Sequence record: MN850590.1 | Direction: 5' to 3' (one strand) | Length of the DNA stretch: 64,000 bases | DNA from: Escherichia phage moha | Shown: piece after piece, positions 9,857 through 13,866 of the stretch | Layout: the number at the start of each line of letters is the position of its first letter | Numbering within the stretch: position 1 is the stretch's first letter | The notes under the pieces: model-generated | The model's database searches: none | What the model was told of the DNA's origin: nothing | Seen by the model: only the letters and a program-made list of their open reading frames with translations | Made by a program: the position numbers and the translations under genes

Positions 9857-10057
9857 ATGGCTAAGCTTTTTAAAGATGTTGAAATTGGTGAAAAATTTGT
9901 TCTGAATAATGGTCAGCAGCTTATTCGTGTAGCTTCTATCGCCGGACAAACTCATAACTGTATCGCCCCAACGTGTTGGACTCGATTCTTTATTGAAGAT
10001 GACACTGAATGTTTAACTGTTGAAGAGCTTTTTGAACGTTCTGATATGACCGAATAA
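9857..10057 (+). CDS. hypothetical protein
   Basis: 66 aa ORF with GAGGAA RBS after early promoter. Confidence 0.55.
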   Translation: MAKLFKDVEIGEKFVLNNGQQLIRVASIAGQTHNCIAPTCWTRFFIEDDTECLTVEELFERSDMTE

Positions 10058-10060
10058 AAT

Positions 10061-10089
10061 TGTACAAACTCTTGAGAGCAGAGTATAAT
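10061..10089 (+). promoter_or_regulatory. early promoter: -35 TGTACA, -10 TATAAT
   Basis: TATAAT 10084-10089; palindrome GAGAGCA/TGCTCTC 10074-10095; upstream of ndd. Confidence 0.5.
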
Positions 10090-10133
10090 GCTCTCATGGA
10101 TTACAAAAACATTAATCAATTGAGGAAATTAGC

Positions 10134-10580
10134 ATGTCCAAATATTTAACTCGTAAAGACCTTCTGGCAGTTGGCGGTGAAGTTGTTGCAGTAGTTCGTA
10201 ATGGCGAATACGGTTCTGAAGTTTCTAAAGAGTTTCGTTCTCGTGAAGGTTTTTACTTCTTCGTTAAAGGTTCATCTGATTGGCGACAAGTAGCAGCACG
10301 ATTCTTTGTAGGACGTCAACGTTCTAAACAAGGGTTGGATGCAATTCTTTCTCACATTCGTCAAGGCCGTTCGCAACTAGCCCGTACCATGGGCACTAAC
10401 AATATTGAATATGATGTAATCTTTGTTGCAGCTAAGAACATGAAACCACTGACCACTGGTTATGGTAAAGGTCAATTGGCTCTGGCATTCACTCGCAATC
10501 ATACATCAGAATATCAAACACTCACCGAAATGAACCGTCTTCTGGCCGATAATTTCAAATTCATTCTGCAGAGTTACTAA
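10134..10580 (+). CDS. ndd: nucleoid disruption protein Ndd
   Basis: 148 aa; strong recalled similarity to T4 Ndd ([11 protein letters not shown]...[14 protein letters not shown]...LADNFKF); position between rIIB and 52. Confidence 0.85.
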
Positions 10581-10632
10581 TTTATACGGACCTATTAAGT
10601 TGGGCCTTTAATTTATTTTTGAGGTAATTAAA

Positions 10633-10779
10633 ATGGTAGCATGGATTATTGCATTGCTGTGTTGGTCGTTTTTATTCGTTAACACTTTAGTTACGGGCGA
10701 AACAACAGTATTTCAACAGGCCGTATCACAAGGTACCTTAGCGGTCTTAGCTCTTATTAACGTGTTAAAAGGCGAGTAA
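10633..10779 (+). CDS. small membrane protein (T4 ac-position)
   Basis: 48-codon ORF, hydrophobic (MVAWIIALLCWSFLFVNTLV...); not in ORF track. Confidence 0.35.
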   Translation: MVAWIIALLCWSFLFVNTLVTGETTVFQQAVSQGTLAVLALINVLKGE

Positions 10780-10920
10780 TGATTAAGAAAATCTTAGCAG
10801 GAGCCTTCGGGCTCTTGTTGTTGCTTACGGTTCTGTACTACGGTGTGATGTTTGGACTAATCCAAGTAGTGCTTTTCATTTCAGATGTTATAATGGTTAT
10901 TCGTTCATTAATATGGTGAA
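10780..10920 (+). CDS. small membrane protein
   Basis: 46-codon ORF immediately following, hydrophobic (MIKKILAGAFGLLLLLTVLYYGVMFGL...); ends 3 nt before gene 52. Confidence 0.35.
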
Positions 10921-10923
10921 AAT

Positions 10924-12249
10924 ATGCAATTGAATTCTCGTAATCTAAAAAGTATTATTGATAACGAAGCCTTAGCATATGCGATGTACACCGTTGAAAA
11001 CCGTGCAATCCCAAACATGATTGATGGATTTAAGCCGGTTCAACGTTTTGTGGTCCATCGTGCGTTAGATTTGGCTCGTGGTAATAAAGAAAAATTTCAT
11101 AAACTTGCGTCAATTGCAGGCGGTGTTGCAGATTTAGGTTATCACCATGGTGAATCTTCTGCACAAGATGCAGGTGCATTGATGGCTAACACATGGAACA
11201 ACAACTATCCACTGTTAGATGGCCAAGGCAACTTTGGTTCTAGAACAGTCCAAAAAGCTGCAGCATCTCGTTATATTTTTGCTCGTGTAAGTAAAAATTT
11301 CTATAACGTATATAAAGATACTGAATATGCTCCAGCTCATGAAGATAAAGAACACATTCCACCAAAATTTTATCTTCCTATTATTCCGACAGTTCTTTTG
11401 AATGGCGTCTCTGGTATTGCAACCGGTTACGCAACAAATATTCTGCCTCATAGTTTTAAATCAGTCAAAAAGGCTGTATTACAAGCTCTTCAAGGTAAAA
11501 ATGTCACTAAGCCAAAAGTTGAATTCCCGGAATTCCATGGCGAAGTACATGAAGTTGATGGGCGTTATGAGATTCACGGAACATATAAGTTCACATCTCG
11601 CACTCAAATGCAGATAACTGAAATCCCATATAAATTCGACCGTGAAACGTATGTGAGTAAGGTTCTTGACCCATTAGAAGATAAAGGTCTAATCTCATGG
11701 GAAGATGATTGTGGTGAACACGGCTTTGGGTTTAAGGTGAAGTTCCGTAAAGAGTACTCGCTTCCAGATGACGAAGAGCTACGTCATGAAAAAATCATGA
11801 AAGATTTTAGTCTCATCGAACGTCGTTCACAAAACATCACAGTGATTAATGAAAAGGGTAAATTAGCGGTCTACGATAATGTAGTAGACTTAATCAAAGA
11901 TTTTGTTGAAGTCCGTAAGACTTACGTTCAGAAACGTATTGACAACAAAATCCTTGAATCTGAAAAAGCATTTAAACTGGCTTTTGCTAAGGCGCACTTC
12001 ATCAAAAAAGTTATCAACGGTGAAATTGTGATTCAGGGCAAGACTCGTAAAGCTTTGACTGAAGAGCTAGCACAAATCGAAATGTATAAAGAACATGTCG
12101 ATAAACTGGTAGGTCTTAACATCTTCCATATCACTTCCGACGAAGCACGTAAACTAGCAGAAGAAGCTAAAGCTAAGAAAGAAGAAAATGAGTATTGGAA
12201 GTCTACTGATGTTGTGACAGAGTACACTAAAGACTTGGAGGCACTTTGA
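10924..12249 (+). CDS. 52: DNA topoisomerase II medium (GyrA-like) subunit
   Basis: 441 aa (T4 gp52 442 aa); GyrA-like N-terminal motif RAIPNMIDGFKPVQRF. Confidence 0.9.
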   Translation: MQLNSRNLKSIIDNEALAYAMYTVENRAIPNMIDGFKPVQRFVVHRALDLARGNKEKFHKLASIAGGVADLGYHHGESSAQDAGALMANTWNNNYPLLDGQGNFGSRTVQKAAASRYIFARVSKNFYNVYKDTEYAPAHEDKEHIPPKFYLPIIPTVLLNGVSGIATGYATNILPHSFKSVKKAVLQALQGKNVTKPKVEFPEFHGEVHEVDGRYEIHGTYKFTSRTQMQITEIPYKFDRETYVSKVLDPLEDKGLISWEDDCGEHGFGFKVKFRKEYSLPDDEELRHEKIMKDFSLIERRSQNITVINEKGKLAVYDNVVDLIKDFVEVRKTYVQKRIDNKILESEKAFKLAFAKAHFIKKVINGEIVIQGKTRKALTEELAQIEMYKEHVDKLVGLNIFHITSDEARKLAEEAKAKKEENEYWKSTDVVTEYTKDLEAL

Positions 12250-12326
12250 GTGCCCTAGCCTTAGGATTTCTCGGTGCAATAGCTGTACTAGTGATTTGGC
12301 TGTATTGGTTGGACAAACATGATTAG

Positions 12327-12347
12327 GGAGCTTCGGCTCCTTTTTTG
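12327..12347 (+). terminator. intrinsic terminator after gene 52
   Basis: GGAGC-TTCG-GCTCC then TTTTTTG. Confidence 0.65.
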
Positions 12348-12367
12348 TGCATTTTTCTCACAAAACA

Positions 12368-12396
12368 GTTTACATGTGCTTCAAACATGATATTAT
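12368..12396 (+). promoter_or_regulatory. early promoter upstream of motA: -35 GTTTAC, -10 TGaTATTAT
   Basis: GTTTAC 12368-12373, TATTAT 12391-12396. Confidence 0.5.
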
Positions 12397-12435
12397 AGAC
12401 CTATCAAAACAAAACAACCAAATTGGAGAAATAAA

Positions 12436-13068
12436 ATGTCTAAAGTTACTTACATCATCAAAGCTTCTGAAAACGCTCTGAATGAAAAAACTGCTGCAAT
12501 AATGGTTTATATCATTAAGAACAACTTCACCACTGCTGCCAATGTCCGTGAAGCTCTGGAAGCGGAATACAATGCATCAGTTGTTAACTCTAACATTGGT
12601 GTATTGATTAAGAAAGGTTTAGTCGAAAAATCCGGTGATGGACTTATAGCAACAGGCGAAGCAATGGATATTATCCAAAAAGCTGCAGACCTATTTGCTC
12701 AAGAAAATGCTCCAGAACTTCTTCAGAAACGTAACACCAGAAAAGCACGTGGAGTTACTCCTGAAATGCATGAACTAGCAAACTTTGTTTTTGAAAATAT
12801 TAAAGATAAAGTTGAAGTTAAAGAAATTGGTGAAAACCGTAGTAACTTAGAAGTTCGATTTGCAAAACGAGTTCTAGGTATTCGTCAGATCGAAATTCGT
12901 CGAGATGGCGCTCTTAGAATCTTTGCATACAACATGTCAGAAACTGAATCAAAACTGTTTACTTCTCTTGAAAATGATGTTAAGATTAAGATCGGTGGTA
13001 AATATACTTACATTGACTTCCCTAATGTGTCCAAAGAAATCATTACCCTTGTAACTAACGTACTGTGA
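12436..13068 (+). CDS. motA: middle-transcription activator MotA
   Basis: 210 aa (T4 MotA 211 aa); N-terminus MSKVTYIIKAS and NIGVLIKKGLVEKSGDGLI match recalled T4 MotA. Confidence 0.9.
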   Translation: MSKVTYIIKASENALNEKTAAIMVYIIKNNFTTAANVREALEAEYNASVVNSNIGVLIKKGLVEKSGDGLIATGEAMDIIQKAADLFAQENAPELLQKRNTRKARGVTPEMHELANFVFENIKDKVEVKEIGENRSNLEVRFAKRVLGIRQIEIRRDGALRIFAYNMSETESKLFTSLENDVKIKIGGKYTYIDFPNVSKEIITLVTNVL

Positions 13069-13078
13069 GGAATACATA

Positions 13079-13408
13079 ATGAATAAGCTGAATATTATTA
13101 ACGAACTTCGTAAATGTGCAGAACCTACTCAGGAAGGATGGGATATTTGGTACCACGGGGCTTATTTAGGGACAATTGTAAAGATTAAAGCAGGCCAATA
13201 TACGGTTATTCGTGAAAATAATGACGCGCCATTTGGCCTTCGTAAAAACTACATGGCCGCGATCAGTTCATTTGTTGATGCAGCTTATGAAATCTATAAA
13301 GAAGATTATAAAGAATATCAGCAGTCACAACCGGTTATTCGTTCAATTGGTGTTAACAAAGCTCAGCAGAAAACTTTGTGGCAACGTATTAAAGGATGGT
13401 TTAAATGA
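13079..13408 (+). CDS. hypothetical protein (motA.1-position)
   Basis: 109 aa ORF, translationally coupled chain. Confidence 0.5.
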
Positions 13409-13866
13409 AAACTTTTAAAGAACGTTTAGCTCTGTTAGATAAAGCTTTGTCGCGTGAGACTCCGGAAAGTCTGGCTGCTAAATTAGCTTCTTACGGTGGT
13501 GAATATACAGAACAAAATGTTTTAGATGAAGTTCCTGAAATCTGTTGGCAGACTCTGTATTGGGATGAAAACCAAAAGTATCAACGACGAATTGTCTGCG
13601 CAGCCAACCGTTTTAAATTAAAAGATGGACGAACTCTTATTATTCCAGGTGCTCGTCATTATTCTAAAGATATGGCAGAAGTTTTAGATGTAGTTAAACC
13701 TCAATTAGTTACTCAACAAGTTTGTGATGATGACCAAGGGTTTATTGACCAGTATAGTAATTATTGGACACGTGAAGAAGCAATGATTATTGCAACTTAC
13801 GCTGGACAAGTACGTATTGAACGTGGTGGTAATGAAAAAGAACTTTACTCTGAGGACCTTTACTAA
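13405..13866 (+). CDS. hypothetical protein
   Basis: 153 aa ORF, ATGA overlap with upstream ORF. Confidence 0.55.

Follow-up and report, generated by a model that had tools for sequence, protein, structure and literature searches.

A conserved 26-codon hydrophobic reading frame at the gene 52 stop codon of Mosigvirus phages as a plausible small membrane-peptide gene

In a stretch of 64,000 nucleotides from Escherichia phage moha (MN850590.1), which we call the window, a 26-codon open reading frame (ORF) opens with TTG on the stop codon of gene 52, specifies a hydrophobic peptide, and closes at the transcription terminator that precedes motA. We regard this frame as a plausible, ordinary and mostly unannotated small gene, and its product is probably a translated, early, gene 52-coupled, single-pass membrane micro-protein with an accessory role. 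A sequence-only reading of the same DNA had cautiously proposed a TM-like peptide, and this is supported: what we observe directly is the ORF with its position, conservation and hydrophobicity, and its counterparts in other genera, together with the selection acting on them.

Results

Gene order around the gene 52 stop

The window comes from a phage of the RB69 group, in the T4-type genus Mosigvirus, and positions 12100-12450 are 98.6% identical to several Mosigvirus genomes. The features of the locus are collected in Table 1; the large gene that precedes the small ORF is labeled gene 52 / DNA topoisomerase II in RB69, NRG-P0074 and others. The terminator closes the gene 52/small-ORF transcript. 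Its hairpin is the sole terminator-like site within 10000-13500, and the NRG-P0074 record has a terminator annotated at the homologous site. The stem begins at 12325, so that the TAG of the small ORF (12324-12326) overlaps the stem foot. Beyond it, the motA promoter carries TGCTTCA between its hexamers, which we take to be a MotA box of the kind found in T4 middle promoters.

Table 1. Features at the gene 52-motA junction (window coordinates)
Feature	Position	Strand	Remarks
ndd	10134-10580
ac	10633-10779		48 aa; predicted membrane protein by annotation
52.1	10779-10919		46 aa; predicted membrane protein by annotation
Gene 52, topoisomerase II medium subunit, 441 aa	10924-12249	+	ORF list; annotated in RB69, NRG-P0074, others
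Shine-Dalgarno-like GGAGG	12237-12241	+	Inside the last gene 52 codons (L-E-A), 4 nt before TTG
Hairpin GGCACT-TTG-AGTGCC	12240-12254	+	6 bp, TTG as loop, covers the gene 52 stop; MFE and centroid folds
Small TTG ORF, MSALALGFLGAIAVLVIWLYWLDKHD, TAG stop	12246-12326	+	ORF list and sequence
Gene 52 stop TGA	12247-12249	+	Shares bases with the small-ORF start
Codons 2-22, SALALGFLGAIAVLVIWLYWL	12249-12311	+	Predicted single membrane-spanning helix; Kyte-Doolittle
Polar C-terminal tail DKHD	12312-12323	+	DNHD or DNRD in some relatives
Intrinsic terminator	12325-12352	+	Stem-loop 12325-12342 (AGGGAGC-TTCG-GCTCCTT) and T-rich tail
motA promoter, TTTACA-16-TATTAT	12369-12396	+	TGCTTCA between hexamers; downstream boundary of the gene 52/small-ORF unit
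motA	12436-13068		Gene after the small ORF and terminator

Tiny hydrophobic ORFs lie on either side of gene 52: ac and 52.1 upstream, and the small ORF downstream. Like the latter, ac and 52.1 are very small (46-48 aa), hydrophobic, early, packed against gene 52, and chained by stop/start codon overlap, but they are upstream genes of greater length with ATG starts, and no reference omits them from its annotation. Within gene 52 itself, codon N365 of gp52 (12016-12018) is hypervariable in Mosigvirus: it encodes N, S, A or T and has changed at each of its three positions. The 80 codons around it are nearly invariant among the genomes of the genus.

The interval between the terminator and motA is also variable. 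In NHEP10, Mizar, JS09, HX01, pEB20 and others, a ~320-bp cassette that the window lacks is found at the place of window positions 12343-12436 (520-960 in the locus we call L030). This cassette contains second copies of the motA promoter, of its ribosome-binding site and of the start ATGTCTAAA, which drive a 71-aa ORF (MSKMKLTQNTTTRFGKVKPG...) with a terminator of its own; the usual motA promoter comes next. The arrangement resembles the shuffling of promoter-early/stem-loop (PeSL) cassettes reported in PMC2839356.

The 26-codon ORF and its predicted peptide

The elements from which the sequence-only reading assembled this ORF are all present in the DNA. The GGAGG at 12237-12241 is exactly placed, four nucleotides ahead of the TTG; the start at 12246-12248 shares a 4-nt TTGA overlap with the gene 52 stop; and 26 codons, (M)SALALGFLGAIAVLVIWLYWLDKHD, run to a TAG at 12324-12326 next to the terminator hairpin. 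An in-frame TAA lies upstream at 12228-12230, so that the TTG is the first possible start of the frame. Internal in-frame starts (GTG at codon 16, TTG at codon 22) would leave 11 and 5 residues, respectively, and were rejected. We also rejected, by inspection, a frameshift fusion to gp52, in whose -1 frame the small ORF lies: the junction GCA CTT TGA offers no slippery re-pairing, and neither does the end of T4 gene 52, ATC AAA TGA.

As a criterion for a single-pass membrane micro-protein we required an unbroken hydrophobic run of some 19 residues or more whose mean Kyte-Doolittle value is at least 1.6. The small-ORF peptide reaches a maximum 19-residue mean of 2.41, over residues 2-22, the extent of the predicted helix, which carries an aromatic belt (W18/Y20/W21) at its C-terminal end. 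The earlier reading called this G/A/V-rich, TM-like composition less typical of random out-of-frame AT-rich sequence. Of the window's 551 mechanically called 20-40 aa ORFs, only 9 (1.6%) reach equal 19-residue hydrophobicity. Just five small ORFs in the window adjoin the end of an ORF of at least 90 aa, and the TTG ORF is the most hydrophobic of the five. Its GC content is 43.6%, compared with 37.7% for the window. By our estimate, 26 stop-free codons would arise by chance at this composition with a probability of ~15%; the openness of the frame is, on its own, weak evidence, and it is the combination of features that exceeds chance.

Initiation signals and a proposed mechanism

The geometry is that of a translationally coupled gene pair, with a TTGA overlap at 12246-12249 and the Shine-Dalgarno (SD) motif inside gene 52. 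The GGAGG is invariant in 14 Mosigvirus haplotypes, though it is also constrained by gp52 coding, and in the Dhakavirus and Gaprivervirus counterparts described below an identical GGAGG stands at the same 4-nt distance from the ATG. The difference between the Mosigvirus TTG and that ATG is a single base, synonymous in gp52 (CTT vs CTA, Leu). The caution originally attached to this ORF, that a TTG with a short spacer is a weak signal, stands: no TTG start occurs among 73 genes sampled from the RB69 reference annotation (72 ATG, 1 GTG), the smallest of which has 46 aa. TTG is a usable start in E. coli when accompanied by an SD sequence and an overlap.

The TTG forms the loop of a small hairpin that also covers the gene 52 stop (Table 1). 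None of its six pairs varies in the 14 haplotypes, which leaves covariation silent on whether the hairpin forms. It would be melted by a ribosome terminating on gene 52 and so offers a possible basis for coupling; if real, it would tie initiation of the small ORF to ribosomes arriving from gene 52.

We infer translation from the TTG, coupling to gene 52, membrane insertion and a function for the small ORF, as follows. Transcription would be early, with the ORF lying at the end of the gene 52 message, and translation would proceed by termination-reinitiation at the TTGA overlap: a ribosome ending gp52 at the TGA would melt the hairpin, the GGAGG would hold the ribosome, and synthesis would restart one base back at the TTG. 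Judging by hydropathy, residues 2-22 of the 26-residue product would form its one membrane-spanning helix, followed by a short polar tail, and the peptide would enter the inner membrane of the host early in infection.

Conservation within Mosigvirus

Conservation of the frame in related genomes was one of the checks proposed for this ORF, and the frame passes it. A tblastn search with the small-ORF peptide returned 149 Mosigvirus records, all of which cover residues 1-26 without gaps; we looked for a disrupted Mosigvirus allele and found none. CEV1, the suspected cause of the difference between the number of DNA matches (~150) and of tblastn records (149), has an intact small ORF. Met is encoded at position 1 in none of the 149 records, and in all 20 sequences that we read (16 haplotypes) the frame consists of TTG, 26 codons and TAG. 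One record, OL631257.1 (ECCR664), matches over the small ORF and differs from all other Mosigvirus sequences at 141 positions in the preceding 240 nt, where it has no annotated gene; this divergence is probably an assembly break or a rearrangement.

Among the sequences read, 13 sites of the small ORF are variable, with 7 synonymous changes and 7 replacements (L4I, L9I, G10S, V14A, W21L, K24N, H25R). The mean pairwise pN/pS within Mosigvirus is 0.43, and the excess of synonymous changes relative to neutral mutation is not significant (P = 0.07-0.18). The five replacements in the helix are L/I, L/I, G/S, V/A and W/L, none of them to a charged residue or proline. Under neutrality, the chance that 13 substitutions create no stop is ~0.5, and the chance that they create no stop and also bring no polar residue or proline into the helix is 0.03-0.04, which is mildly unlikely. 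Nucleotide diversity is 0.040 in the small ORF, compared with 0.015 at the 3' end of the gp52 gene, and is near that of the non-coding stretch downstream, where T-runs and the terminator loop carry indels. This evidence is compatible with a functional, weakly constrained peptide, and also with a young remnant of one.

The same slot in other T4-like phages

We collected 45 diverse T4-like loci from IMG/VR by means of the gp52 C-terminus and read each gp52 stop. In 33 of them a hydrophobic ORF of 22-77 aa is launched from that stop, through ATGA, TAATG or a slightly longer overlap, and the best 17-residue hydropathy of these ORFs ranges from 1.9 to 3.4. One further locus has a non-hydrophobic ORF in the slot, and the remaining 11 have none, the terminator following gene 52 directly. 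Among the 45 loci, slot ORFs all start with ATG except in the two from Mosigvirus. The slot peptides fall into several mutually unrecognized families (different PHROGs), within which dN/dS is low: 0.07 and 0.11 for the T4 type, 0.05 for Dhakavirus, and 0.13-0.17 for the Slopek/Jiaoda type. Because of this purifying selection we take the slot ORFs to be real genes, and conclude that the slot between gene 52 and motA holds real, fast-diverging, dispensable small membrane-peptide genes; T4 (motA.1), Dhakavirus and Gaprivervirus have an annotated gene there.

Decay and loss are also seen in this slot. In the IMG/VR locus L026 (1513-1587), compared with L024 (1506-1586), the ATG is gone and D and P have entered the helix, while a GTG start lies 16 nt past the gp52 stop. 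L020 has lost the 46-aa ORF that its relative L019 carries, so that gene 52 is followed by the terminator.

In Dhakavirus, WG01 gp261 (phrog_16377) is a 34-aa ORF with the same geometry as T4 motA.1, and the Gaprivervirus slot ORFs (VR7ORF278c, VR20, VR26) have 29-32 aa. They share with the small ORF an upstream sequence GACTTGGAGGCxCTxTGA and a gp52 that ends LEAL (DLEAL-stop), an MS start, one hydrophobic helix, and a short charged tail (NKIDKD and KVIDS in Gaprivervirus, NFKK in Dhakavirus, comparable to DKHD), as well as a stop at the foot of a GGxxCCTTCGGG-type terminator. They differ from it in their ATG start and in an extra N-terminal xGVEF segment; in the DNA alignment, Mosigvirus lacks 9 nt after codon 2 that are present in both genera. 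The DNA is colinear across the region, where a single blastn piece spans WG01, and the small ORF has the same flanks, namely the DLEAL-stop, the GGAGG with its 4-nt spacer, and the terminator at the stop codon.

Our searches of PHROGs and Pfam, and with hhalign, for homology of the window peptide to known families gave nothing usable: it does not match phrog_16377 (PHROGs; hhalign probability ~1%), and against the phrog_3487 profile, which T4 MotA.1 matches at 2e-31, it fails, its only hit being phrog_9990 at E = 0.15. Shuffle tests gave P = 0.14 against WG01, 0.047 against VR20, 0.27 against VR26 and 0.41 against T4 MotA.1; we do not count the similarity to the Dhakavirus and Gaprivervirus peptides as significant. 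The best shuffle-tested Smith-Waterman alignment, and the only suggestive one, was with the 26-aa peptide of L024 (LGFLG vs LGFIG; P = 0.002 before correcting for 8 tests).

Annotation status

The small ORF has been annotated once, in the RefSeq record of HX01 (NC_018855.1), and is omitted in the curated RB69 reference and the other records inspected. The HX01 entry, D299_gp206 (YP_010247053.1), is the same ORF, an 81-nt CDS with a TTG start that begins 4 nt before the end of gene 52, placed as in the window relative to gene 52 and the terminator. Its product, MSALALGFLGAIAALVIWLYWLDKHD, is identical to the window peptide at 25 of 26 residues, V14A being the sole difference; the entry is an automated "hypothetical protein" call with no function attached. 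The allele of the window itself (V14) is absent from the protein collection searched. The TTG start, unusual for RB69, and the short length would account for the missing annotation in RB69 and the other records.

Some records without the TTG ORF annotate other frames instead: a 29-aa antisense ORF (12227-12316, minus strand) in phages a20, NicPhage and ST2, and a 44-aa GTG ORF (12347-12481, plus strand), called hypothetical, in NRG-P0074 and EP32B. The former is on the wrong strand and the latter spans the motA promoter, and we rejected both as probable gene-caller artefacts. Elsewhere, several database entries give the T4-type MotA.1 peptide a wrong name ("flagellar motor protein MotA", "transcriptional regulator"), an annotation error that has spread from the gene name.

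Discussion

Weighing the alternatives

Is the small ORF a working gene, or could the same observations arise otherwise? The main rival, possible though in our judgment unlikely, is a decaying remnant: an ancestral ATG gene of the Dhakavirus/Gaprivervirus kind would have been largely silenced by a gp52-synonymous CTA-to-CTT change (ATG to TTG), and its frame would have stayed open owing solely to the youth of the genus and the shortness of the ORF. Mosigvirus is indeed the only non-ATG occupant of the slot, with a start unused in the 73 RB69 genes; yet that start is fixed genus-wide rather than being one of several decayed states, and a TTG with an SD and an overlap is usable in E. coli. The peptide is among the shortest in the slot, with 9 nt missing after codon 2, and L026 shows how decay can proceed, with its ATG lost and D and P in the helix; the Mosigvirus helix has taken up no polar residue or proline (P = 0.03-0.04 under neutrality), and the 26 codons are ungapped in 149/149 records. 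An open frame after 13 neutral substitutions would itself be no surprise (chance ~0.5), and the diversity of the ORF approaches that of its non-coding flank. The pN/pS of 0.43 is higher than the values in other genera (0.05-0.17), but still below 1.

An improbable reading is that the peptide sequence is irrelevant and that the 77 nt from the gene 52 stop to the terminator act in cis, as a structured 3' end or as a short "carrier" ORF that would lead ribosomes up to the terminator foot and in this way tune read-through into motA. The overlap of the small-ORF stop codon with the terminator stem would suit such a role, as would the finding that in ORF-less genomes the gp52 stop itself adjoins the terminator. 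A hairpin predicted at 12264-12297 has pairs that are kept by most variants (G-U/A-U, G-C/G-U), but two variants break pairs, no compensatory changes are seen, and the fold is ordinary (z = -1.56; 15 of 200 shuffles fold as well). Moreover, between genera it is hydrophobicity that is kept and not sequence, which a carrier ORF or RNA would not need, and the counterparts have dN/dS of 0.05-0.17. It is hardly credible, finally, that the frame is open by chance or that the true product lies on the opposite strand. Runs of 26 open codons are fairly frequent by chance at this composition, and gene callers have placed the minus-strand ORF here in three phages; chance, however, does not readily bring together an SD, a start overlapping the stop, hydrophobicity in the top 1.6% and an ORF end at the terminator, a combination that recurs in 33/45 loci across genera, and the 29-aa antisense product is polar, runs against the direction of every neighboring gene, has no promoter match, and appears only in Phanotate-type annotations.

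Role and significance

If the small ORF is the membrane micro-protein gene that we favor, its most likely role is an accessory one at the membrane, for example as a modulator of a protein in the host envelope or membrane; that it forms part of the topoisomerase is less likely. The argument for an accessory function comes from T4, where CRISPRi-ART knock-down of motA.1 is scored "Not Fit", with no fitness cost, while knock-down of gene 52 costs fitness, and from the many phages without a slot ORF. By analogy, the small ORF would be non-essential in the laboratory. We also considered a more ambitious version, which we hold to be doubtful, in which the gene 52 stop is a conserved "launch pad" for the repeated gain or de novo birth of unrelated TM micro-proteins, and the Mosigvirus TTG a tuned-down version of it. 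At least six mutually unrecognizable peptide families (22-77 aa) share the stop-overlapping start, and peptides whose synthesis keeps pace with that of gp52 could serve to tether or control the topoisomerase or the replication apparatus at the membrane.

If the peptide is made, then ~150 sequenced RB69-group phages, the reference included, lack one real early gene in their annotation, and tiny membrane peptides coupled to the topoisomerase gene extend over most T4-like genera. This is a modest point of annotation and comparative genomics. Knowledge of T4 biology is unchanged by it, since the T4 counterpart is uncharacterized and dispensable in the laboratory.

Comparison with known systems

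It is instructive to compare the small ORF with T4 motA.1 (T4p263, UniProt P39512, phrog_3487), annotated in T4 and RB14 as a 49-aa ORF, MSPFIGITSAALVSGS..., and described as a "hypothetical predicted periplasmic protein". In T4, motA.1 occupies 163730-163879 and gene 52 occupies 163876-165204. The two ORFs have the same synteny, lying in the slot between gene 52 and motA, with a 4-nt overlap with the gene 52 stop (ATGA in T4 and RB14) and an end at the terminator, ahead of the motA promoter; both begin MS- and are strongly hydrophobic. In contrast to the small ORF, T4 motA.1 has an ATG start and an SD spacer of 7 nt, is twice as long with probably two hydrophobic segments, and is under strong purifying selection (5 synonymous : 1 non-synonymous).

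The RNA of T4 motA.1 is classed as early and its protein was undetected by LC-MS (class NA), in a study whose authors generally put missing T4 proteins down to low early expression or small size. The sole match for "motA.1" in a full-text literature search concerns the homologous T4 hairpin, listed as the "motA.1" terminator (PMC5931544), and the HIDEN-SEQ preprint contains nothing relevant to motA.1.

A second comparison is with the small membrane proteins and type I toxin peptides of bacteria, such as ShoB, TisB, AcrZ and KdpF, which have 19-50 aa. The small-ORF peptide resembles them in its size, its single hydrophobic helix and its short polar end, and they too are often missed by annotation. 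It lies in no antisense RNA or toxin context; the likeness is one of analogy, in which no sequence relation is expected. With T4 motA.1 the relation is one of place: homology to motA.1 or to the Dhakavirus ORF is undetectable, and we therefore claim positional equivalence and not family membership. The small ORF is thus the positional counterpart of T4 motA.1, and its only family is that of the Mosigvirus ORF recorded in HX01.
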